A stretch of DNA of 64,000 bases from Candidatus Bathyarchaeota archaeon. GTDB lineage: Archaea; Thermoproteota; Bathyarchaeia; Bathyarchaeales; Bathycorpusculaceae. The stretch's first letter is position 1. Every line of letters begins with the position of its first letter. The stretch covers positions 320,001 to 384,000 of the forward strand of contig CAWAKC010000007.1 in NCBI GenBank assembly GCA_963782525.1. Reading direction: 5' to 3'. Position numbers and translations under genes: made by a program. Positions 35,538 to 49,217 of this stretch are shown here, in pieces. The notes beneath the pieces are model-generated. The model worked only from the letters and a program-made list of their open reading frames with translations. It was not told the DNA's origin and searched no databases.

Positions 35538-38500
35538 CTAAAAATCAAAAAGCTTAGCTTGCTTTGGCTTTTTGTTGTCAAACATGGTGGCTATCTCTTC
35601 CTTGATTAAATCCATGCGCTGCGTATAGTATTTTGGCAAGCCATACTTGTCGACCAATTCTTGTGCGGCAAAAAGGTACTTCTCTATGCCGCCGCGGTAG
35701 ACGGTGAGGGTTAGTTTTCCGCCGCAATAGGAACATTTGCCTTTAAGGGGTAATCGCCGGAATTTTTTGTTGCAAGACTTGCACCTGAAACCTTGCGTTG
35801 AGAAGGCACGCATGTTACCTGCGATATCACGCATGAAGTGGGTATTCAAAACCTTCAATGCCACTCGCCTAGCATCGACGGCATCGATTTTTTCGCCCAG
35901 CTCCAATTGCATGTGCAACTTATCTATCATGGATTTGAATTCTTTGTAGGAACTGTTGGCGTTGCCGAGATTAATGTTTGTGCAGGGGGTGGTGTATTGG
36001 AAGCCTTCAAACTGCGCTTCCGTGCCCAGTCGGTGGCTGATGACATCCATCATGGCGCTTGCGGGTCTAGCGTCAAACTTCTCCAAGGTTTTCCTGTAGA
36101 ACTCGATTGGGTAAGTTGCGCTAACGTCGAAGTCGTGTGCTTGGCGCTGAACCTCTTTTGTGTTTACAAAGGGGATGAGTAGGATAGGAGCATCCATTAT
36201 TCCGCCGATCTGCGCAGGAAGAAAGACCCGAGAGAAGTTAAGAAGCGTGTCCAAAGCAAGCATGATAGCATCTTCGTCGCCGTCGCAGTCTCGACGTTTA
36301 GCCGAATGCCAAACGGGATGAGCATAAATCACGTTGCGGTCAGTGAAACCAACCACTCTGCCTAGGATGCAGGCACACGTGTGAGGCGCCAACCCAAAGA
36401 GCAGGTGCCCAACCATATCCTCAGCTTTCTTAACGTTATAGTAAGCGGGTTGCTTGTAGACGCGAACTAAAAGGTCGTCGATGAAAGCGGCGATTTGAAC
36501 AAAGTACTCGCCTGCACGCCAGGGAATCACAACATCTTGGATTTTAAGTTCGCAGACTTGATTAGAATCCGTTAGGGGCAAGCCATGGGTGTCTGAGAGA
36601 TAGTCCATTTGACGCATCTTTTCGACTGAGACGCCAACTTCAGCAGGAGTGATGTGTGTTAATGGAGCGTTTGTGGCGTCGAAGCGGATGGTGCCATCCT
36701 TGTAAACTGATAGCCCGTGTTTTGCCCGCAAGATACCTTTCTCAATGTTCTCAGGTGTTTTATCAAGGTTTGTTAAACCCTTAACACCGCGAAGCATCTT
36801 TGGCGCAGGATATCCGAGGTTTGAACTGGCAATGGCGATTAATTCTTTAAAGTTCACGGGTTGACGCTGATACATAACCCCATCGGTCTTGCATGTTGAG
36901 CATCCTGTGTCCTTTACTGTTTTACCACACCTTGGACAAATCTTCTCTGAGATGGTTTCGCAGTTGCATGAAGGACATTTTATTTTTAAGGTGTAGCTTT
37001 TGCAGTTTGGGCACTTACGCTTAGCCAGCTCGACAAAGACCGGCCCTTGTCGTGAAGCTTCCATAAGGTCACGGTGTGTTCCTCCCTTTAATCCGACAGG
37101 GAAGAGGAGATGGACGAGAGGTTTCATTTCGCGGTGCTTAGCTTTTTCTGGTCTACCCATGCGCCCGCCTACATATGTTGGGGCTTTATCTTTGATTTGC
37201 ACACTTGACAACAAGCTCAGCATTTCCAACGGGGAATTTGCTTGAACAACCTGTGTTTTACCGTAGCCAAGAGAGAAACCAAAAGAAGCAGCGTCTTCGC
37301 CAACCAGCACTATTTTGCCGTCAAAGATTTTATGCTGTACAAAGATTTTTCGAAGAGACTCTATTACGGCCTCACTGACGTCACCCACAATTTTGCTCGC
37401 AAAGCTTTCGTTCAATGTTACTTCACAATTTGTTAACCACCGCCTCAGCAACTCGATTTCAGTTAGATTTGATATGCTGCCCCAAAACAAGAGACAATTA
37501 GGGGCAAGAGGGATGTCAAAGCAAAAACTTAATGCAGCAGCTTCTTTAACGGTTGGCTTGCATGCAAATGGGTCCGCAACAAAAGCCTCAAGCTTCACTA
37601 TAGAAAGATTTGTCGCTTGAGCAGCCTTCTGAAAATCAGAACCGAATTTTTCCATAATAGCCCTTTGAAGGTCTTTTGCCCACCATTCCTCAACGTATCC
37701 CGAGGGTGGAAGCGCTTTGTTACAATATAGAAAATCGCCGAAGTCTATGAGCATGTCACCTAAGAAGAGGATTTTTTGAACCTTACCCTTAATATCAGGA
37801 TAGTTTTCGAGCGAAACCCGCACAACGGAATTGTCTTTGAGCAAAACTACAGGTTGCTCAATGCTGTCCACGGGCATAGTGACGCCGCCTTTACCGGGCA
37901 ACTCCAGACGCATCTGTGTGCCTGCAGCGAGAAAATTTTCAACTACAGCCATTGTAGCAGGATGAATACCCACTGCTGAGAGCCCCGTATTACGGGACCT
38001 TCCGTATCTGAGGCGAAAACCACCGCGAGTGGAAGGAAACGCAAAGATAGGGCGACCGGCAATGACATCGTCCATGAAACCGCCTGATTTCTTCTCAGAT
38101 TTCTTCTTGAAATTCTTGAGCCATTCCCAACCCTGAAAACCTAGCTTATCAATTATCACATAAACTTTCTGAGCGCGCCCAACGATGCCGTCGTTTACGA
38201 CACGAAGGGCTCCGCCTCTGACCCGATTGGTTTCGACTCTCTCCAGGTTACGATATGACGAGACCTCTACGGGATCGGATTCGGTTCCTGTGCATTCGAC
38301 TGGGATGAGGTTAAGCGCTTTTTTTAGTTCCTCATCGGGAATGTGGTATTGGAAACGTCCCACTGAGCGTTCGTAGAGTCTTAGTTCTTCGACGAAGCGG
38401 GAGACTTCTTCCTCAGTTGGCTTGTACTTGTCAAGGTCCAGTTCCCGACGTACGTAATCGCCCACAACTAACGTTAACGCTTGATCGGTGCCGCCAGCTG

Positions 38501-38960
38501 AACGAATGGGCCCAGCAAAGTACACAGCGAGATAACGTGACTTGTCGGCGTTTGTTTTTATTTTAACTTGGGCTATACCCTGAATCGGTGCTGCAGTTAG
38601 GCCTTCAGTAAAGATTGCAAGGGCAGTTCGAATCGCTTGTTCCGCCAATTGTTCTGGTCTCTGTTCCGTCTTAGCGAATTTTCCTTGGGCAATTTGTTGG
38701 GCTACTTTAAACGCTACTTCTTCTCTCGGCATCTTTGTGTTTAATTCACGGATGCTAACAGCTACATCTTTGGGGCCAACTAACCCTTCCACCAAGTCCG
38801 CGATGTCCTGTGCAACGATGCACTCGGTTTTTAGGGCTGGATCTAAGCCTTTGGATCTGGCGCTGTCACTTATGGCGTACAGTCGTTTAAGCTCGTTATC
38901 CATTGTTTGGACATAGTTTTGATAGCCCTTGCTAATATTCAATCGACAGCTCACCCGCAA
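35538..38960 (-). CDS. polC: DNA polymerase D large subunit DP2
   Basis: AGPIRSAGGT, FRLRYGRSRNTG, RMGRPEKA and KRRDCDGDED motifs. No intein seen. Start uncertain. Confidence 0.98.
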   Translation of the reverse strand: MRVSCRLNISKGYQNYVQTMDNELKRLYAISDSARSKGLDPALKTECIVAQDIADLVEGLVGPKDVAVSIRELNTKMPREEVAFKVAQQIAQGKFAKTEQRPEQLAEQAIRTALAIFTEGLTAAPIQGIAQVKIKTNADKSRYLAVYFAGPIRSAGGTDQALTLVVGDYVRRELDLDKYKPTEEEVSRFVEELRLYERSVGRFQYHIPDEELKKALNLIPVECTGTESDPVEVSSYRNLERVETNRVRGGALRVVNDGIVGRAQKVYVIIDKLGFQGWEWLKNFKKKSEKKSGGFMDDVIAGRPIFAFPSTRGGFRLRYGRSRNTGLSAVGIHPATMAVVENFLAAGTQMRLELPGKGGVTMPVDSIEQPVVLLKDNSVVRVSLENYPDIKGKVQKILFLGDMLIDFGDFLYCNKALPPSGYVEEWWAKDLQRAIMEKFGSDFQKAAQATNLSIVKLEAFVADPFACKPTVKEAAALSFCFDIPLAPNCLLFWGSISNLTEIELLRRWLTNCEVTLNESFASKIVGDVSEAVIESLRKIFVQHKIFDGKIVLVGEDAASFGFSLGYGKTQVVQANSPLEMLSLLSSVQIKDKAPTYVGGRMGRPEKAKHREMKPLVHLLFPVGLKGGTHRDLMEASRQGPVFVELAKRKCPNCKSYTLKIKCPSCNCETISEKICPRCGKTVKDTGCSTCKTDGVMYQRQPVNFKELIAIASSNLGYPAPKMLRGVKGLTNLDKTPENIEKGILRAKHGLSVYKDGTIRFDATNAPLTHITPAEVGVSVEKMRQMDYLSDTHGLPLTDSNQVCELKIQDVVIPWRAGEYFVQIAAFIDDLLVRVYKQPAYYNVKKAEDMVGHLLFGLAPHTCACILGRVVGFTDRNVIYAHPVWHSAKRRDCDGDEDAIMLALDTLLNFSRVFLPAQIGGIMDAPILLIPFVNTKEVQRQAHDFDVSATYPIEFYRKTLEKFDARPASAMMDVISHRLGTEAQFEGFQYTTPCTNINLGNANSSYKEFKSMIDKLHMQLELGEKIDAVDARRVALKVLNTHFMRDIAGNMRAFSTQGFRCKSCNKKFRRLPLKGKCSYCGGKLTLTVYRGGIEKYLFAAQELVDKYGLPKYYTQRMDLIKEEIATMFDNKKPKQAKLFDF

Positions 38961-41013: not shown

Positions 41014-41847
41014 ATGAAAGACAAGATTAGACTTGCACTTGCTCAAATCAGCAGTAAACGTGAAAACAAAAGCGAGAATCTGAGGAAGATAGAAGAGCTA
41101 ACCATAAAAGCCAAAGAGCAAGGCGCAGACCTAATTATCTTTCCAGAGATGTCTTTAACAGGTTACGTTATTTTAGATCAGGTTTACGAGCTTGCCGAGA
41201 CGATACCTGGACCGTCAACCGATAAAGTTGAGACTTTGGCGAAGAAAACAGGAATGCACATCGTTTTTGGGATGCCGGAGTTGAGCGAAAAAACCCAAGC
41301 AACAATCTTTAATACCGCTGTCCTTGTTGGTCCCAAAGGCCTAATCGGTAAATACCGCAAGATGTACCTGCCAACTCACAGCGTCTTTGAAGAGAAAAGA
41401 TATTTCCGCCCAGGGTATGAGCCAGCGGCATTCGAAACAGGTATAGGCAACATCGGATTATCCATATGCTATGACGTTTTCTTTCCTGAAGTGTTTAGGC
41501 TATCACGCCTCAAGGGTGCGCAACTGATAATTTGCATTTCCGCGTCCCCAGCCGTGCGGAGAGGCTACTTTGAAATTTTAACGTGTGCTCGAGCACTTGA
41601 AAATACGGCGTTTATTGCATACGTTAACCTTGCTGGTGTTGAGGATGGATTGCAGTTTTGGGGTGGAAGCCGACTTGTTTGCCCAACGGGCGAGGTTGTT
41701 GCTAAGGCAAAGTACGATGAAGAAGATTTTGTCGTCTGCGACGTTAATTTTGGCGATTTGAGGGCTGCTGAAACGTTCATTCCGACCTTGAGAGATTTGC
41801 GGCCTGAACTTTTCGATAAATTGAAGGAGTTTTCAGAGCAAATCTGA
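41014..41847 (+). CDS. Nitrilase/carbon-nitrogen hydrolase, probable glutaminase partner of NadE
   Basis: Catalytic triad in FPEM, YRKM and ICYD. Lies just downstream of nadE on the same strand. Confidence 0.88.
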   Translation: MKDKIRLALAQISSKRENKSENLRKIEELTIKAKEQGADLIIFPEMSLTGYVILDQVYELAETIPGPSTDKVETLAKKTGMHIVFGMPELSEKTQATIFNTAVLVGPKGLIGKYRKMYLPTHSVFEEKRYFRPGYEPAAFETGIGNIGLSICYDVFFPEVFRLSRLKGAQLIICISASPAVRRGYFEILTCARALENTAFIAYVNLAGVEDGLQFWGGSRLVCPTGEVVAKAKYDEEDFVVCDVNFGDLRAAETFIPTLRDLRPELFDKLKEFSEQI

Positions 41848-41975
41848 GATGTCACAGTTACATAAATTCCTTGGAGTGCAGCATCACAGGGGTATCACAA
41901 GGCTGTGATGTGAGGTAATTTGTGGTAAAATCACGTATTTCGGGTGATGTCACGGTGTTTTTTGTATGATGCCAC
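41846..41975. repeat. Cluster of GTGATGTCAC-like motifs
   Basis: GAGATGTCAC 41846, GCATCAC 41881, GTATCAC 41892, GTGATGTG 41905, GTGATGTCAC 41944, ATGATGCCAC 41966. Confidence 0.7.
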
Positions 41976-42323
41976 GAATAAGTTGTGGCCTGAAAACTAT
42001 GTTTTAGTGTAAGATTGACCTAGAAAAAGTGTGGATATATCGTCGGAAATGCTAAAAATAAGGAGTTTAGGTTTGAGGGCGTTTGCAAAAGAGCATTTTT
42101 CGTGTAAAGTTCAGGCGCATTGGAGTAAAAAATTAACGAGAATTTAGGCTTTATTATGTCAACTGCACTTATTCTCGCACCAATTACTAAACAAGTCAAA
42201 ATTGCGATCTAGATTAATAAATGGACGTTAATTCGAGCTTTTAATATTTCTGTAATGAGGGGTTAGGGCGGGTGCAAAGGTTAAAAACAAGGGTTAGTAT
42301 ACAAAACCGTATCCATTCAGACT

Positions 42324-42821
42324 ATGGAGGAACGCGGAGATTTGAAGTTAAAAGACGGCGTAACAGCATGGTTAAGCGGGGCATTAAACGACCCCATTGT
42401 GCAAGTACTGGCTAAAAACAGCCAATTAACTAAAATACAGCTTGAAACATTGCTTATTGATGTTTTAGCTGAAAATATTTCCGATAAACAGCTAAACTAC
42501 GATGAAAAATCTGCTTTACGGCTAACGAAGTCCAAAATAAGCCGCGGTTCGTTTAACAGGACGTTAAAACAGTCCAAAGAAAACGTCATAAAATCGATCT
42601 ACACGGTACTACTTTTGGGTTATCTGGGTGTGTTTGAGAGCTCAACTCTTGACCCTTATCTCGAAATAGCCAATAAACTGCATGATTATGTAGAGGCTCA
42701 CCAAGAAATGCCGGGCAAGGAAGAGGAACTAAAAGACCATCTAAAAGTGATAGAAATCATCCGAAATGAGCTCGAAACGAGCCTAAAACGGCTTTCTAGC
42801 CCATCACAAGACCAATTGTGA
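42324..42821 (+). CDS. Origin-proximal hypothetical protein with an HTH-like segment
   Basis: LTKIQLETLL..YDEKSALR..ISRGSFNRTLKQ resembles an HTH. Confidence 0.75.
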   Translation: MEERGDLKLKDGVTAWLSGALNDPIVQVLAKNSQLTKIQLETLLIDVLAENISDKQLNYDEKSALRLTKSKISRGSFNRTLKQSKENVIKSIYTVLLLGYLGVFESSTLDPYLEIANKLHDYVEAHQEMPGKEEELKDHLKVIEIIRNELETSLKRLSSPSQDQL

Positions 42822-43100
42822 CGTCACAAATCACAGATTTTTCAGTCATTTTTTTGCATTTTAGATGAAGTAAATCATTTATCTGAATAGGCTTTAGTTA
42901 AGCATTAATTAACAAAATAAGCCTAATAATCGATTTTAAATGTATGGATACAGCTTCAAAATGATGCACTGTGATGTGTGATGTCATACTTTACTAGGCA
43001 TGATGTCACCGATAACCTTATTACTCCATGGAAATACTGTGATGTGTGATGCAACATTTGAAAACACGGCGAATCACGGTTGAGTCACAAATAAATCACG
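42816..43100. repeat. Second GTGATGTCAC-type motif cluster
   Basis: Perfect palindrome TTGTGACGTCACAA 42816-42829, direct repeat ACTGTGATGTGTGATG at 42968 and 43036, ATGATGTCAC 43000, plus further TCAC half-sites. Confidence 0.75.
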
Positions 43101-43112
43101 AGGGAAAACATC

Positions 43113-43895
43113 ATGATTGACCTCACACCAGTAATCGTAGGCATTTTAGTAACTATGACAGCATTAGCTGGATACGAATACTATAAGCAAGTCCGCAAGG
43201 CATACAAAGAATACGAGAAAGCCAAAGATTTCATCGAAGATATCGTGCTCAGTTTTGATCGTGAGCTTAAACGTGAATCGGATAAGTTTGACACGATGGT
43301 TTCTAAAGTTGAAGGAAGCTACAACACAGCAAACGTGAGTTATAGAAAAGCAGATAACGTCGAAAGTAAAATAGAACCATTAGAGCAACAACTCGTTGCA
43401 CTCAGCCAATCATACCAAGCGATGTCACAAACAATCTCACAGAATATAGGTGAAAACACTCAAAATAGCACCAGCATCCTTACTGGGTTAACGGGGTTTG
43501 AAACAAAGATAAAAGATATTGAAGTCACACAGGAAACCTTGAGAAACAGAATATTAGCCTTTGAAGACCAAATTCAGAAGCTTTCTGTTTCTCCTCCTGT
43601 AGAAGCTAAAAACGAAATTGTTTTGCCTTCCATAGTAATCAAACGGGACAAAGCCATGTCCGCTCTTACTGACACCGAAATCGCAGTTCTTGAAATGTTG
43701 TCTAAAGAAGGGGCCAAGACGGCGCCTGAAATCAAAGAGAGGGTAAAGCTTAGTCGGGAGCATACGGCAAGGTTGATGAAGAAACTCTATGAAGAAGGGT
43801 ACCTTGAGCGGGAAGCAGGTAAAATTCCCTTTAGGTATAGCATTAAGAAGGAAATGGAAGCATTACTGCAGAAATCTGAGAGCACAGCGGTTTAA
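43113..43895 (+). CDS. Membrane-anchored coiled-coil protein with a C-terminal winged helix
   Basis: N-terminal TM, heptad-rich middle, LTDTEIAVLEML..TAPEIKERVKLSREHTARLMKKLYEEGYLER wHTH. Confidence 0.85.
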   Translation: MIDLTPVIVGILVTMTALAGYEYYKQVRKAYKEYEKAKDFIEDIVLSFDRELKRESDKFDTMVSKVEGSYNTANVSYRKADNVESKIEPLEQQLVALSQSYQAMSQTISQNIGENTQNSTSILTGLTGFETKIKDIEVTQETLRNRILAFEDQIQKLSVSPPVEAKNEIVLPSIVIKRDKAMSALTDTEIAVLEMLSKEGAKTAPEIKERVKLSREHTARLMKKLYEEGYLEREAGKIPFRYSIKKEMEALLQKSESTAV

Positions 43896-43913
43896 GGCAA
43901 AATTGTAACTTGA

Positions 43914-44703
43914 GTTCACAGGTTGTTCACAGTTGTGTTTTGTGAAGGGATTACTTTATGCGTTGTTTGATTGTCGCTTGTGGTAGGCTTGGGGCTGTCT
44001 TATACTTTAAGCTGTTTGGTCCACCCGTCCTAAGCAGCATCCCTTTGGCTGCCATCCTTGAAAGATAAGTTGAAACTGTACTGAGGCCCACAGGTTCTTT
44101 GAGTTCCTGTTCGTAGATAGACTGGATTTCTTTGGATGAGAACCAAATCAAGGGGAAATTTTTCTGGATAACCAACTGAACCTTCTCAAAACGTGACAAA
44201 ATCTTATTCGGTAAAGCATTCCCTGCAATTGCAGTTGGACCTTCGCCTGATGCTCCACCTAGCAGCTCCACAAGATCCAAAAGGCGCAGAGCTTTATCTC
44301 GGGTCACTTGGCCCTCAAAAGCAATGGTATATCGATTACCATCGCTATCGAACAGCTCAACGCGCATTTTACGAGCCGGCATCTGGTTACACCTTAAGGT
44401 TGTTCACAACTTTATGCTTCACAACATATAGCTGTTATGGTGAAGCCGATGAATAGGAAAAAGAATATTTGAGCTTATACATCTGTTTTGGATGTAATTT
44501 GAAGTGATTTGGCTATAACCAGCTTCACAAATAAACGAAACTGCTAAAAATATTCAGTTAAGGCTTAGTTCTGCTTTTCCAGTAGAAGCGTAGGGGTGCC
44601 TTGTTCACTTGTAAGAGACAAGAAAAGGGTAATTTACCAGCAAATAACCCAAATAAAGCGACAAATAAATTGTTATTTCACATGTATTCACAGTTTTGTG
44701 AAC
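43914..44703. repeat. TTCACA-type motif arrays flanking the 143-aa wHTH gene
   Basis: GGTTGTTCACA at 43921 and 44398, GCTTCACAA at 44416 and 44522, TTCACA at 43915, 44677 and 44687, TGTGAA at 43941 and 44697. Confidence 0.7.
43951..44382 (-). CDS. Winged-helix protein divergent from cdc6
   Basis: WFSSKEIQSIYEQ..LSTVSTYLSRMAAKGMLLRTG wHTH with a small N-terminal domain. Confidence 0.82.
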   Translation of the reverse strand: MPARKMRVELFDSDGNRYTIAFEGQVTRDKALRLLDLVELLGGASGEGPTAIAGNALPNKILSRFEKVQLVIQKNFPLIWFSSKEIQSIYEQELKEPVGLSTVSTYLSRMAAKGMLLRTGGPNSLKYKTAPSLPQATIKQRIK

Positions 44704-45160
44704 ATAAAAACAAAGAAAAATTAGCAAAAAAAATATAGGCAAACTTAGCGATATCTACAAACAAAAAATTACAGAAACAAAGTACTCACCGCCACCATCA
44801 AGGAAATTTACCATAGAAAATTAGTTGTAGCCACACCCCTATGTTTCCGCTCGAAGTATTTGGGAGAAAAAGAAGTCAGAAAAGCCTGAACAAACTTTTG
44901 CAGAAGATTTGTCTAAAAACTTTGATGACAAATATTAATATATAAAAAAATAACTTACCTATTACAGTATATTACTGTATATATAATAAATAGTAGTTTT
45001 CTTTTAACCAACATTATTCTCCAGTAGAAACTTTGGGGTGTGTGTGCTCTCGCTTTGTTTGGTTGTTATCGGCTATTTTCTTTGTTTTTTAGGATTGTTG
45101 TGCTCTAAAACTATTTTTTTGTAGTGTATACTTTATCTGTTCCACACGAAATAACGGTGT
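44577..45160. other. Replication origin oriC (ORB elements and DUE)
   Basis: ORBs TTCCAGTAGAAGCGTAGGGGT 44577(+), TTCGAGCGGAAACATAGGGGT 44835-44855(-), CTCCAGTAGAAACTTTGGGGT 45019(+) and a mini-ORB at 45140. An AT-rich stretch at ~44930-45010 lies between the inverted ORBs, adjacent to cdc6. Confidence 0.9.
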
Positions 45161-45191
45161 TGCCTCTGAAGAATGATGAGAGGGATGCCTG

Positions 45192-46433
45192 ATGGGAAAT
45201 TCAAGCGTATTAGATGATGTATTCGAAAACTTCGTGAACGGAGTTAAATTGTTCAAAGACCGAGAGGTCTTAAGGCACGATTATCTTCCGGAGAAACTTC
45301 CACACCGAGAAGACCAGATTCGCCTGTTAGGTGCAACCGTTGCCCCAGTTTTGAGGAATTCAAGATGCTCAAACATTTTCATCTATGGAAAAACGGGGAC
45401 TGGAAAAACGGCCGTAACTAAATACGTTTTAAGTCACTTGGAGTCTAAAGCAAAGGAATATGGTGCACAAGTAAAATTCTGCTACATCAACTGCCGAATG
45501 ACTGGGTCTGAATACCGCGTTTTCGCAAGCCTTAGCCAAAGCGTGGGGTTATCAATACCCTTTACAGGTCTATCTGCAGGAGAAGTTTTTGACCGTTTTC
45601 GTCAAGGATTAGATCAATCCAGAATAATATTTATCATCATTTTAGATGAAGTTGACGCCCTGATCAAGGAACACGGCGACTCATTCATGTACGAGTTAAC
45701 CAGGATAAACGAAACTTTAACCAAAAGCAAAGTTGCACTAATCGGCATATCCAACGACCTGCGGCTAAAAGAATTCCTCGACCCAAGAGTCTTCAGTTCT
45801 CTGAGCGAAGAAGAATTGGTCTTCAGACCTTATGATGCAGGTGAACTTCGAAATATATTGCTTGAACGGTCGAAGCTCTCCTTCCAAGATGGCGTTCTCA
45901 CTGATTCAGCATTGAGCATTTGCTCGGCTTTAGCTGCAGCCGAACATGGAGACGCGCGGCGAGCTTTGGATTTGTTGCGCGTTGCTGGGGAAGTTGCTGA
46001 GCGGTTGGGAGCGAAAACGATCACAGAAGAACACGTGCGCCAAGCTGAAAAACACATCGAGCATAACCGCGTTGTAGATGCCCTCAACAACTTAACGTTG
46101 CATTCCAAGCTCGTATTACTAAGCGTTTATCACTTAAACAAATCAAGCGCAACTACCGGAGAAATCTATGATATCTACAATGAATTGTGCGGTGAAATGG
46201 GCGCTGGGCTTCTAACTCAACGTCGTTTAGGTACTTTGGTTAATGAGCTTGATTCAATGGGGCTTGTGAATGCAAAAGTAGTAAGCATGGGCCGATACGG
46301 CAGAACCAAAAAAATCCGTTTGGAGATTTCTCGCAGCTTAATTCGCGACGTCTTCAGCAGCGATAACCGTTTTAGTCACTTACTTGAGTACTCGCCCCAA
46401 GTTTCCAACAAAAAGCCAAACAACAGTACATAG
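45192..46433 (+). CDS. cdc6: Orc1/Cdc6 replication initiator
   Basis: YLPEKLPHRE, GKTGTGKT, ILDEVD, GDARRALDLLR and SMGRYGRT motifs. Confidence 0.98.
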   Translation: MGNSSVLDDVFENFVNGVKLFKDREVLRHDYLPEKLPHREDQIRLLGATVAPVLRNSRCSNIFIYGKTGTGKTAVTKYVLSHLESKAKEYGAQVKFCYINCRMTGSEYRVFASLSQSVGLSIPFTGLSAGEVFDRFRQGLDQSRIIFIIILDEVDALIKEHGDSFMYELTRINETLTKSKVALIGISNDLRLKEFLDPRVFSSLSEEELVFRPYDAGELRNILLERSKLSFQDGVLTDSALSICSALAAAEHGDARRALDLLRVAGEVAERLGAKTITEEHVRQAEKHIEHNRVVDALNNLTLHSKLVLLSVYHLNKSSATTGEIYDIYNELCGEMGAGLLTQRRLGTLVNELDSMGLVNAKVVSMGRYGRTKKIRLEISRSLIRDVFSSDNRFSHLLEYSPQVSNKKPNNST

Positions 46434-48011
46434 TTAATTGAACGAAAGGACTGTAGTCTGTAAGGTTTGTAGGTTCACAACCGGTACCATACCAGGTGTA
46501 GGAACCAACCCTAATTTTTCCATATAGTCTGTTTGGTCTTGCCAACCGCCAGAATTAACAACCAATACGCCACGGTAGTTGCAGTAACCTATCACGTGTA
46601 TGTGTCCTGCATGAAAAATGTCAGGAATTCTATCCACGACGAGGTAGTCTCGGTTTTCTGGGGACAACATGGTTTTCCCACCGTACACAGGCGCTAAATG
46701 TCGACTCTGCATAAGAAGCCGCATCGCTTTCTCAGGATGCGCATGATCCATTCCAGGTATAACAGCGATTATGTCGTCTAAGCTTCGGCCATGGTACATT
46801 AAAACATCAACGCCATGCAGACTTAGAAGGCATGGGCTTCCGACAGAATGAATGTTGTTCATTCCCTTTATGCCCGTTAAATAACCTTCTGGTATGGCTG
46901 GTTGTGGTAAGGATTTGCGTGCTGCGTCATGGTTTCCTGGTGACAGAAAAATCTCGATGTAGCTGGGAATTTTTTCAAGGTACTTGGCGGCGTAATTGTA
47001 TTGTTTGTGCACATCCCGTATGGTTAACTCGTTCTGTTGACCGGGGTAGATTCCTACTCCGTCCACGATGTCTCCCGCAACGAGGAGGTATTTTACTCGA
47101 CTTGCGATTTCCTTCATCTCTGGCGTTCCATACTTGCCCCTAAGCCACAGAATAAATCTCCTGAATGATTCTTTGGTGAATTTTGTGCTGCCTATGTGGA
47201 TGTCCGACGTGAGGACTGCGTAAACTGGTTCTTGGGCTCTTTGCTGCTGTTTTCTTCCGATGTCTGGAAAGATTATATCTTCAGCCATGAACAGGTTGGT
47301 CCGCGTTTTGATGACTGCTAAACAGATTACTTGGTCAGGTAACAGCATAAGTGCTTTTTTCTTGACTTCTTCGGGGGCTTTTTGAGGCACAAGAACAGTT
47401 GCGCTTCCGTCCAAGTCCTCGACCGAGAGGATAGTGTGGTTTTTTGAATCCCGCTTCTCGGTTAACATGCAGATTATTTTGAGTTTGGTTTTGGCCGGTG
47501 ACTTGAGTGCCTCTGTTATAGGCGTTGCTGCTTTAACATCCATTCTTTGCCGAAGCAAGCGTTCGATGCGCTTGAAGCGGTCTTGGAAGTACGCGACATA
47601 CTCGTCTAGGGTTCCGTTTGAGGTCAATTTGCCTGTGGCATCATCGAGGATTTTGATGTCTGCGGGTATGTCTTTGGCATATGGATAGAACTCGACTTCA
47701 TCTAAACCTTCAGTTGTTATTGGACGATCAAATTTTATGGGTGGTTCAGGCATAGTTTGTGTCTTTGATATAGGCTCTTCTGTTATGGTAATTGTTGGCT
47801 GATGTATTAGTGCTTCCAAAAAAACCCGTTCAATAAACATTGGCTTATCTTGTAACAAATCTATTTTTTCAAGCGCCAGATTCGTTATGGTGATTGGATC
47901 ATTTGTTTCTGCGTTCTGTATTAGGAACTCAAAGGCTTCGCTGTTAAGTTGGTATCCCGCAGCCATTATCGCTTGAATAGCTCGTTGCAGTTTTTCTTGT
48001 GCACTCATCAA
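46434..48011 (-). CDS. polB: DNA polymerase D small subunit DP1
   Basis: SDIHIGS, GDIVDGVGIYPGQ, PGNHDA, HLAP and GHIH motifs. Confidence 0.97.
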   Translation of the reverse strand: MMSAQEKLQRAIQAIMAAGYQLNSEAFEFLIQNAETNDPITITNLALEKIDLLQDKPMFIERVFLEALIHQPTITITEEPISKTQTMPEPPIKFDRPITTEGLDEVEFYPYAKDIPADIKILDDATGKLTSNGTLDEYVAYFQDRFKRIERLLRQRMDVKAATPITEALKSPAKTKLKIICMLTEKRDSKNHTILSVEDLDGSATVLVPQKAPEEVKKKALMLLPDQVICLAVIKTRTNLFMAEDIIFPDIGRKQQQRAQEPVYAVLTSDIHIGSTKFTKESFRRFILWLRGKYGTPEMKEIASRVKYLLVAGDIVDGVGIYPGQQNELTIRDVHKQYNYAAKYLEKIPSYIEIFLSPGNHDAARKSLPQPAIPEGYLTGIKGMNNIHSVGSPCLLSLHGVDVLMYHGRSLDDIIAVIPGMDHAHPEKAMRLLMQSRHLAPVYGGKTMLSPENRDYLVVDRIPDIFHAGHIHVIGYCNYRGVLVVNSGGWQDQTDYMEKLGLVPTPGMVPVVNLQTLQTTVLSFN

Positions 48012-48242: not shown

Positions 48243-49217
48243 TTGGGTGAATCACGGAAAATTCAGCAGACACCAACGGGCACTTTCTTTGTTTGCTTGC
48301 CGAGAGATTGGGCAAATGAATCTGGCTTAAAGAAGGGTATTCAAGTAAATTTGGAAGTTACCAGCGATGGGAAACTTCTTGTTGATCCCAAAAATGCTGT
48401 TGAACCTGAACCCAAAGTAGCTACTTTAGGAGTTGGTCCATTTTTGGGACGTGAAATAGTCGGCAGATACCTGTTGGGCTATGATACTATTAACATTGAG
48501 GCAAAGGGCCGCATAGATGCAGCGGCTAGGAATATTGTTAAGTCGACTGCTAGTTCGCTGGCTGGTTTAGAGATAGTTGAGGAAACAAGTTGCAGGATTT
48601 CATTACAGAGTATTGCTCAGCAACCGTTTGGTTTTTTGCCTCAAAAGATCCTGCAGCGAAATCATGGTTTAGTGGCTGGAATGATTCGTGACGTTTCTAA
48701 TTCGTTCATTACGAGCGATTTAGAATTAGCAAAAAGTGTTGTTTCCCGAGATAATGAAAGCAACCGACTTTATTTCTTGTTGGTTAGAACTCTGCGTACC
48801 ATTATCCAGAACCCACAGTTAAGTGAGAAACTGGGGATTACTCCTATTGAATGCTTGGACTACCGTTTAGCGGCAAGCCTAATCGAAGGCATCGGCGACG
48901 CATGCGTGCAAGTAGCCTCAAACACCATGGCGCTTAATGGAGCAAAACTATCAGAAGAACTGCGGAAGCTACTGATTGAATTGCAGTCAACCTGTTGCGA
49001 AGCCAATGAACGGGCACTCAAAGCATTCCTGACCAAAGACATCTCGGTCGCAGAAAACGTGCGTAGTTTGAACAAAAAAGTCGAAGATACGTACGTTAGA
49101 ATTGAACAAGCCGCAAAAGAATCCTCGGTGGACCTGATGCCTCAGATTTTGGCAGCAGTGTCTTTTCTTAGGCAGATTTACGAGCGCAGCGTTGACATGG
49201 CTGACCTAGTTGTCTAA
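48243..49217 (+). CDS. AbrB + PhoU domain phosphate uptake regulator
   Basis: RKIQQTPTGTFFVCLPRDW, YLLGYDTI and NRLYFLLVR motifs. Confidence 0.88.
   Translation: MGESRKIQQTPTGTFFVCLPRDWANESGLKKGIQVNLEVTSDGKLLVDPKNAVEPEPKVATLGVGPFLGREIVGRYLLGYDTINIEAKGRIDAAARNIVKSTASSLAGLEIVEETSCRISLQSIAQQPFGFLPQKILQRNHGLVAGMIRDVSNSFITSDLELAKSVVSRDNESNRLYFLLVRTLRTIIQNPQLSEKLGITPIECLDYRLAASLIEGIGDACVQVASNTMALNGAKLSEELRKLLIELQSTCCEANERALKAFLTKDISVAENVRSLNKKVEDTYVRIEQAAKESSVDLMPQILAAVSFLRQIYERSVDMADLVV

Follow-up and report, generated by a model that had tools for sequence, protein, structure and literature searches.

Two protein-and-site pairs beside a chromosomal replication origin of Bathyarchaeia: a possible origin accessory factor and a candidate membrane tether

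What three unnamed genes are doing beside a chromosomal replication origin, among spacers in which short DNA sites recur, is the question raised by a 64,000-nucleotide stretch from a Candidatus Bathyarchaeota archaeon (positions 320001-384000 of contig C7 in genome G000, 2.87 Mb). This whole stretch is referred to as the window, and coordinates are given within it. The region studied (41848-45191) holds P165 (42324-42821, plus strand), an all-alpha protein of 165 aa with no named family; P260 (43113-43895, plus strand), with an N-terminal transmembrane (TM) segment, a coiled coil and a winged helix-turn-helix (wHTH) domain of MarR/TrmB type; and P143 (43951-44382, minus strand), with a beta-beta-alpha N-domain, a variable linker and a C-terminal wHTH. 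An initial annotation had placed these three open reading frames beside an origin with origin recognition boxes (ORBs) and had proposed that they form one module; the placement was confirmed, and three ORBs and a cdc6 gene were found next to them. The trio is in fact two pairs: P165 and P260 go with arrays of ATCAC sites (motif A), and P143 goes with TTCACA sites (motif B), the ORBs and the Cdc6-1 ortholog. We consider it possible, with a probability of roughly 40%, that P143 is an origin accessory factor and that P260 tethers the origin-flanking array to the membrane. The genes, their domains and motifs, and the uniqueness, conservation and co-occurrence of these were established by the comparisons below; we infer from co-occurrence among related genomes, and from one covariation event, which protein binds which motif.

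Conservation was assessed in related genomes, and the counts given throughout overstate independence. The gene order P165-P260-P143-cdc6-DP1 was kept in 20/20 loci, each from a different genome of the order (one contig stops short of cdc6), and both motif arrays were present in all 20. P165 was located beside the DP2, DP1 or Cdc6 genes in 19/20 further loci at class level, and P260 was found in 36/41 relatives. A phylum-level search recovered P165 relatives in 98/201 genomes, and the whole DP2-GGGPS-P165-P260-P143-origin-cdc6-DP1 layout was found in six loci of one outgroup family (Nitrosopumilaceae-type). There P260 has the same build of TM, spacer and wHTH, and the loci carry ORB-like repeats, ATCAC sites where P165 ends and where P260 begins, and an operator-like palindrome before P165 (motif C, described below); exact look-up showed that these outgroup proteins are labelled hypothetical or 'winged helix DNA-binding protein' and come from a Nitrosarchaeum species. 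The origin linkage in relatives on which the proposal of an origin-associated function depended was upheld in the order, in the class and in this outgroup family.

Co-occurrence was then counted in 151 genomes of the class, with the Cdc6-1 ortholog called at E at most 1e-90. P165 was detected in 126, P260 in 109, P143 in 87 and the Cdc6-1 ortholog in 99. The Cdc6-1 ortholog was present in 87/87 of the genomes with P143, and 81 of the 88 P143 places shared a contig with Cdc6-1, at a distance of no more than 6 kb in 80 cases (median 1.9 kb); the remaining seven fell on short contigs. P260 keeps company with P165: in 101/110 P260 places the two share a contig, never more than 8 kb apart (median 1.06 kb). 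Four families (f14, f23, f26 and f27) retain P165, P143 and Cdc6-1, and P260 was not found in them. The linkage and order expected of a single three-gene module were observed, and its unity was not, as the co-occurrence falls into two pairs.

P143 matched no Pfam family over threshold (the nearest, Penicillinase_R, scored 16.9 bits vs 22.6), and a search of PDB sequences gave nothing significant (best E 0.023). The wHTH claimed for it in the initial annotation was seen in an AlphaFold2 model (pLDDT 69.9; 77-87 over residues 61-130), which consists of a beta-beta-alpha N-domain, a disordered linker and the wHTH. Foldseek returned only generic wHTH matches for this model (Fur, MecI/BlaI, RosR and AspA, best E 5.5e-3). 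The recognition helix, LST.STYL, is invariant.

The TTCACA cores number 11: they cover the P143 promoter, adjoin ORB1, form a triple in the interval from ORB1 to ORB2 and occur 3' of P143. The best window in the 809-bp spacer between P143 and cdc6 (IG4) held TTCACA six times vs at most four elsewhere in the genome, and is the densest such window. Three TTCAC cores between the 3' ends of P260 and P143 (43915-43946) are not present in all genus members. The promoter of P143 (44397-44455), with TTGTTCACAA, CTTCACA and TGGTGAA sites around a TATA-like TATAGC, is an invariant block in the genus, and most P143 loci have a site at -25 to -50 relative to the start of the gene. A single conserved site, ACCAGCTTCACA, was located at 44518-44530 from the genus alignment and the site list. 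It is followed by ORB1 (TTCCAGTAGAAGCGTAGGGGTG, 44577-44598, plus strand) and the TTGTTCAC site abutting it (together 44577-44608), and by the triple TTTCACAtgtaTTCACAgtttTGTGAA (44676-44703), which does not vary within the genus; TTCACA-N3-5-TGTGAA occurs nowhere else in the genome. The inverted ORB2 (44834-44855, minus strand) and ORB3 (45020-45042, plus strand) were identified by ORB search and genus alignment. In most loci P143 has an ORB 140-220 bp upstream, flanked on either side by motif B. Over 41 loci, the TTCACA count was 2-8 (median 5) in the 33 with P143 and 1-3 in the eight lacking it.

Protein and site also appear to change together. The helix form LST[VIA]STYL pairs with TTCACA (0-8 per 700 bp upstream, at least 3 in 29/35 loci), and the form LS[IV]ISTYL pairs with TTAACA (7-10, with TTCACA 0-1) in five Nitrosopumilaceae-type loci; one locus is mixed. 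This covariation would support the pairing of P143 with TTCACA and is suggestive only, because it represents a single clade-level switch. P143 is predicted to bind the TTCACA sites as a dimeric wHTH protein and would repress itself through those over its own promoter. Since TTCACA sites are interleaved with ORBs, P143 is read as a putative origin accessory factor, which may act beside Cdc6 in the manner of UBP at ucm in Sulfolobus. According to the study of that system, UBP is a non-initiator protein that binds an essential non-ORB motif (ucm) in Sulfolobus oriC1 (PMC12141716). The likeness is that of a short non-ORB motif between ORBs to which a small protein other than the initiator presumably binds, as proposed here for P143 and TTCACA. 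In contrast, UBP as described there is a beta-rich saddle with hundreds of genomic sites and is encoded elsewhere, whereas P143 is encoded at the origin and has few sites (PMC12141716). P143 was also considered as a UBP-type protein itself, and this was rejected: its model has two strands and a helix followed by the wHTH, and not a beta-rich saddle with beta-hairpins.

Taken further, this arrangement could mean that both units, P260/P165 with ATCAC and P143 with TTCACA, set the time of origin firing, perhaps through sequestration of the origin region once initiation has occurred, or through control of Cdc6 and MCM access, the anchor serving only to limit diffusion. In nearly all lineages the module does lie among cdc6, PolD DP1 and DP2, TTCACA sites adjoin ORB1 and also occupy the interval between it and ORB2, and both P143 and the Cdc6-1 ortholog are missing from f24 (0 and 1/33), f21 (0/4), f18 and f33. 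UBP at ucm provides a precedent for an accessory factor needed for origin activity (PMC12141716). The ATCAC arrays, however, are 1.3-2.7 kb from the ORBs and not within them, and f24 keeps the P260 unit without an ORB origin, and we regard such a device for the whole locus as unlikely.

Motif A, with the core [AG]TCAC, occurs 19 times around P165, as seven cores at 41851-41953 and 12 at 42803-43099. The distal array (41848-41980) extends from the nitrilase stop codon, 344-476 bp upstream of P165. It holds ATCACA-N5-ATCACA-N4-TGTGAT and the palindrome-like GTGATGTCAC, and it appears as a footprint in an alignment of 15 genomes of the genus, in which invariant motif blocks stand amid diverged spacers. 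The proximal arrays (42803-43100) include TGTGACGTCACAAATCACAG over the P165 stop codon, TGTGATGTGTGATG twice and GTCACCGATAACC, with three ATCAC sites phased at 11 bp over the TATA-like TAAAT of P260. The best 300-bp windows for [AG]TCAC[AG] contained 11 sites in the 291-bp spacer between P165 and P260 (IG2) and six in the 476-bp spacer upstream of P165 (IG1), with at most four elsewhere in the genome; the two arrays are thus its densest and second densest such windows. The composite words TGTGATGTGTGATG, GTGAYGTCAC and the triple 11-bp-phased ATCAC were found, genome-wide, only at this locus. Spacings between cores on the same strand peak at 7, 10-11, 21-22 and 32-33 bp, and the palindrome GTGAYRTCAC was counted 84 times over the P260 loci, these being related loci whose counts are not independent. 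Motifs A and B differ in their first base only, yet are unmixed, with nine A and no B in IG2, and no A and six B in IG4. The genome-wide density count therefore bore out the enrichment near the origin that had been predicted, and the iteration of the motifs with it; their number had been given as two and proved to be three, the palindrome motif C having been missed.

The ATCAC sites follow P260. In the 34 of 41 loci with P260 the maximum per 300 bp was at least 5 (median 11, highest 14), and in the seven lacking it the maxima were 6, 3, 2, 3, 2, 3 and 2; P260 was absent genome-wide in 5/5 checked genomes of the latter. The link is looser in 18 outgroup loci (maximum 2-10 in the 15 with P260, 2-3 in the three lacking it). 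In f24, arrays lie inside NadE and HypF-like coding DNA (L039:9240-9390; L036:11127-11260), at roughly the usual distance from P165. That motif clusters of either kind are a functionless by-product of composition or shared ancestry is very improbable. The cores are only 5-6 bp long and all compared genomes are relatives, as such an explanation would have it; against this, the clusters are the top windows of a 2.87-Mb genome and invariant islands amid diverged spacers, the motifs are retained across two classes, their spacing is helically phased and their presence tracks that of the proteins.

The initial annotation had described P260 as a TM segment followed by a coiled coil and a wHTH, and each part was verified. 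The N-terminus is hydrophobic (17-aa Kyte-Doolittle mean 2.02 at residue 6) and followed by basic residues, giving a TM anchor at about residues 5-22, and then a coiled-coil spacer of variable length. By profile, the helical region matches the coiled coils of tropomyosin, chemoreceptors and GCN4 (E 1.5e-5 to 1e-3), and 8/200 shuffled sequences attained its score on a crude heptad measure. The wHTH occupies residues 185-244 and scored above the Pfam cut-off for both MarR (PF01047, 30.8 bits vs 24.6, residues 185-235) and TrmB (PF01978, 28.8 bits vs 25.6). Canonical MarR proteins are compact, soluble dimers in which helices flank the wHTH; in P260 the MarR match covers the HTH core of about 51 residues, and the remainder of the protein is TM and coiled coil. 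Database relatives of P260 are labelled 'MarR family' and come mostly from Bathyarchaeota. The TM segment is retained in 31/35 class loci (17-aa mean at least 2.0) and in 13/15 outgroup loci, and spacer length varies. No extracytoplasmic or other sensor domain was detected by Pfam and hydropathy, as almost no residues lie outside the membrane. A complex prediction for P260 (residues 24-260) with P165 scored 0.00, which is neither support nor counter-evidence.

The start of P260 (43095-43125) is itself unusual. In 11/15 genus loci there is no ATG, GTG or TTG from the upstream stop to the conserved TM segment, and the ATG at 43113 in the window is ACG in most genus members, within an ATCACG site. 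In Nitrosopumilaceae-type loci the P260 start is GTGATG, which is also a motif A word. These data may indicate a non-canonical start, or binding coupled to translation.

The third protein, P165, is a single-copy protein nearly universal in the class. It had been called HTH-like, and this description did not hold up: no Pfam or NCBIfam family was found, comparison with PDB sequences gave a best E of 0.23, and its structure model (all-alpha, pLDDT 75.6) gave a best E of 2.3 against the PDB by Foldseek, neither being significant. What remains for that description is a weak atlas lead to Sigma70_r4 (score 0.78) and an impression from the sequence. Ten distant relatives of 130 aa likewise matched no Pfam family and carry the source label 'hypothetical', as do nearly all of the approximately 3000 database relatives of each of P165, P260 and P143; no P165 or P260 relatives were found on viral contigs.

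The promoter of P165 (42278-42314, plus strand) consists of the TATA-like AAGGTTAAAAA followed by the palindromic operator GTATACAAAACCGTATCC (motif C, 42297-42314), an 18-bp palindrome of the form GTATAC-N6-GTATCC between the TATA-like box and the P165 start. This promoter, including motif C, is invariant in the 15-genome genus alignment, and the full 18-bp word occurs once in the genome. In almost every one of 40 class loci a form G.ATAC-N6-GTAT.C immediately precedes P165, and motif C lies upstream of P165 in 7/18 outgroup loci, including Nitrosopumilaceae-type loci. Because motif C accompanies P165 across loci, it fits autoregulation by a dimer, which would most simply be P165 itself, acting through the palindrome at its own transcription start. 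A 30-nt block, TTTGCAAAAGnGCAnTTTTTnGTGTAAAGTT (42083-42112), is also kept in the genus alignment within the otherwise diverged IG1 spacer and has no Rfam match.

The locus would on these data hold two linked protein-plus-site units at a chromosomal origin. In the P165-P260 unit the N-terminal helix of P260 would sit in the membrane with the coiled coil and MarR-type wHTH in the cytoplasm, and the wHTH would bind the ATCAC arrays, which are helically phased, lie on either side of P165 and extend over the TATA box and start codon of P260. Occupancy of the array would shut down P260, possibly also P165, and would at the same time hold origin-flanking DNA at the membrane, because the genome has no other such address and the arrays lie within a few kilobases of the ORBs. 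If P260 binds the array, origin-flanking DNA is necessarily placed at the membrane. That this placement, for positioning or control of the origin, is the selected function may be argued from the many sites, the lack of any other genomic target and of a sensor domain, the variable spacer, and the keeping of arrays inside f24 coding DNA. The tether role of P260 is plausible but unproven.

The main rival is an ordinary transmembrane regulator. All three proteins could be local transcription factors, P260 a single-pass transmembrane regulator and P143 and P165 small autorepressors with the motifs as their operators, in a neighbourhood that is merely frozen gene order around replication genes and has no part in replication or segregation. 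P260 satisfies the published definition of transmembrane transcription regulators (TTRs), at least one predicted TM and a DNA-binding domain, and TTRs were found in 367/404 archaeal species surveyed (PMC10269533). Each motif type overlaps the promoter, start or stop of its cognate gene, unrelated genes (GGGP synthase, NadE, nitrilase and PhoU-like) belong to the same conserved synteny, and P165, P260 and the arrays occur in f24 without ORB or Cdc6-1; the missing TM in some lineages and the compact site clusters of the Nitrosopumilaceae-type loci also agree with local regulation. However, 19 cores in two clusters about 900 bp apart far exceed the needs of an autorepressor, and composite sites that occur nowhere else in the genome leave no regulon to regulate. 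Neither the lack of an extracytoplasmic or other sensor domain, nor the persistence of arrays in coding DNA at a kept distance from P165, nor TTCACA sites between ORBs and well away from the P143 promoter, nor the fact that P143 was never found without the Cdc6-1 ortholog, is readily accommodated. We regard local regulation as a serious contender, possible rather than probable. The initial annotation had named binding by the proteins, as ordinary repressors, to no promoters but their own as one finding that would overturn a role at the origin; each motif does cover the promoter of its own gene, and autoregulation is at least part of the story.

P260 can also be set against TTRs directly. TTRs, like P260, combine a TM segment with a DNA-binding domain (PMC10269533), and P260 would likewise act on DNA from the membrane. 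P260 differs in that its TM stands at the very N-terminus, next to nothing being external, and its DNA-binding domain is C-terminal after a long coiled coil. It would differ also in its target, apparently one multi-site array beside oriC and not a regulon. The main text of the study names no MarR, Thaumarchaeota or Bathyarchaeota case (0 occurrences; PMC10269533).

Several observations weigh against a tether and accessory factor at the origin. All sites overlap promoters, so that autoregulation alone would explain them, and transmembrane transcription regulators are common in archaea, at about four per genome (PMC10269533). Among the 33 genomes of family f24, P260 was found in 30, P165 in 28, the Cdc6-1 ortholog in one and P143 in none. 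The five f24 loci that were inspected retain P165, P260 and the arrays and have no ORB-like element, which leaves the array there with no recognisable origin at its side. Families f14, f20, f23, f25, f26 and f27 (0/25 genomes), all of which have Cdc6-1, yielded no P260, and it is therefore dispensable. P260 lacks the TM in f34 (four loci, arrays kept) and f41 (two loci, no arrays). In the outgroup, 7/15 P260 loci have only 2-5 ATCAC per 300 bp, and the Nitrosopumilaceae-type sites are packed into a spacer of about 100 bp, like an ordinary operator. The motif B counts overlap between loci with and without P143, four of the loci with P143 having 2-3. Along contig C7 the GC skew is flat with no switch at the origin, and so provides no independent origin signal. 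The proposed tether, partition or initiation control without an ATPase thus keeps its linkage, motifs and anchor, and is weakened by f24, the TM-less homologs and the missing P260.

The state of f24 raises a further explanation, in which the P165-P260-ATCAC unit would be a membrane-attached, iteron-like, Cdc6-independent replicator in the sense of the classical replicon model. The unit would then be the working origin of the f24 locus, and elsewhere would be a second adjacent origin or a derived tether. Phased direct repeats and inverted repeats are present at the promoter of the putative binding protein, as in iterons, and the spacer beside the f24 arrays is extremely AT-rich (100-bp GC minima of 0.15-0.25 in 4/5 loci and 0.32 in the fifth). 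The sole Cdc6 paralog of f24 has 30-33% identity and is encoded far from the locus. We consider a replicator of this kind highly unlikely. That Cdc6-1 and P260 are complementary as alternative replicators was not supported, as among the 151 genomes 76 have both, 23 Cdc6-1 only, 33 P260 only and 19 neither. An iteron Rep initiator has two winged-helix domains, and P260, considered as one, was rejected since it has one wHTH only. A second Cdc6/Orc1 paralog of 29% identity is encoded on contig C10 of the genome (98930-100030), with no ORB-like element within about 10 kb; three f24 genomes yielded no Cdc6 homolog other than this paralog.

A tether formed by P260 would have bacterial counterparts. 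RacA/ram and Noc/NBS of Bacillus combine site-specific DNA binding with a membrane-binding element, and have origin-proximal sites and no dedicated ATPase. In the work on RicO/ricS of S. aureus, a DNA-binding and membrane-binding protein anchors origins, and RicO, like P260, has a site-specific DNA-binding domain, a membrane element and origin-proximal sites, again with no dedicated ATPase (bioRxiv 10.64898/2026.03.06.710092). RicO is bacterial, its membrane element is described there as a C-terminal amphipathic helix and not a TM, and its sites are spread over the origin region, in contrast to the packing into about 1.2 kb seen here. The Pfam matches of P165, P260 and P143 showed no homology to these systems.

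The absence of a ParA/SegA-type ATPase from the module, as described initially, was confirmed among the genes at 41014-48011; elsewhere in the genome there are ParA/MinD-like genes (seven AAA_31 and 12 CbiA matches). ParABS was rejected because no ParA Walker ATPase lies between 41014 and 48011 and no ParB family is among the Pfam/NCBIfam matches of the three proteins, and SegAB because there is no segA upstream, the neighbours being nitrilase, NadE, cdc6 and DP1. SegAB and AspA-ParBA of Sulfolobus and pNOB8 share with the present locus a small dimeric binder with sites upstream of its own gene, possibly both centromere and operator (PMC5120986). The AspA wHTH is among the Foldseek matches of P143 (rank 50, E 0.04). 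Unlike the present module, both systems are described there with a ParA-type ATPase in the operon (PMC5120986). A HerA-like ATPase (DUF87, E 5.3e-8) and a partner of about 330 aa with no Pfam match are encoded downstream of P143 on the same strand in five loci of other families of the order (L026-L029 and L031) and in one genus member (L019:6979-9514). This HerA-like/NurA-like pair was rejected as a 'missing motor', since it was not found in the present genome by tblastn or in the class-level loci examined.

Iteron plasmid replicons, ParR/parC and KfrA have helically phased direct repeats and inverted repeats over the promoter of the adjoining winged-helix or coiled-coil DNA-binding gene. Unlike these, the present locus has no Rep-type double winged helix and no actin-like or ParA motor, is chromosomal and has no relatives on viral contigs. 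A literature search whose reach excluded supplements returned no paper on Bathyarchaeia origins or these genes, and no membrane tether of an archaeal origin turned up.

The surroundings of the two units are those of a replication locus. Upstream lies the gene for PolD DP2 (35538-38960, minus strand), followed in order by genes for GGGP synthase, a small Zn-ribbon protein, NadE and nitrilase (ending at 41847). Downstream are the genes for the Cdc6/Orc1 initiator, the Cdc6-1 ortholog (45192-46433, plus strand; Pfam Cdc6_lid and Cdc6_C, E 1e-24), and PolD DP1 (46434-48011, minus strand), with a PhoU-like gene beyond. The latter encodes a PhoU-domain protein (48243-49217) with an N-terminal AbrB/MazE-like domain and belongs to the conserved origin synteny. 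Judged from its sequence, the spacer between P143 and cdc6 has the usual archaeal origin layout: repeated ORBs, called with what we take to be the ORB consensus, an inverted pair around an AT-rich stretch, and an adjoining cdc6/orc1 gene. The stretch between the inverted ORB2 and ORB3 (44920-45000) is presumed from the layout to be the unwinding element, and 44600-44999 (GC 0.29) is the most AT-rich part of the region. In the cdc6 5' region CTGTTCCACACGAAATAACGG (45139-45159, plus strand), which we take to resemble a mini-ORB, is invariant in the genus alignment and may be a site of Cdc6 autoregulation. No Rfam match was found in 41700-45300. In one f34 locus (L038, genome G122) the P143-P260-P165 block has ORB-like elements to either side, placing the trio inside the origin region. 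In Nitrosopumilaceae-type loci (L060-L064; L062:11073-11234) P260 and P143 are separated by an extra 53-aa AbrB/MazE/SpoVT gene, ahead of which lies a palindromic stretch very rich in AT. Metatranscriptome contigs from four runs match parts of P165, P260 and P143 at likeness of at least 88%; this is a weak hint of expression only, as RNA libraries can hold DNA and the contigs may come from relatives. The bins over IG1 are nearly empty, from which nothing follows.

Outside the Sulfolobales, the positioning, segregation and regulation of archaeal origins are largely unknown. Three unnamed families of proteins and the DNA sites that they probably recognise are defined here; the families extend from Bathyarchaeia to the ammonia-oxidising Nitrosopumilaceae, which include cultivated strains, so that the predictions are directly testable. 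Should neither proposed role be correct, the locus would still offer a clean example of three autoregulated factors kept beside oriC by frozen gene order. An accessory role of P143 at the origin would extend the idea drawn from UBP and ucm to a second, unrelated fold, and if P260 tethers origin-flanking DNA, it would represent an ATPase-less positioning device in archaea.

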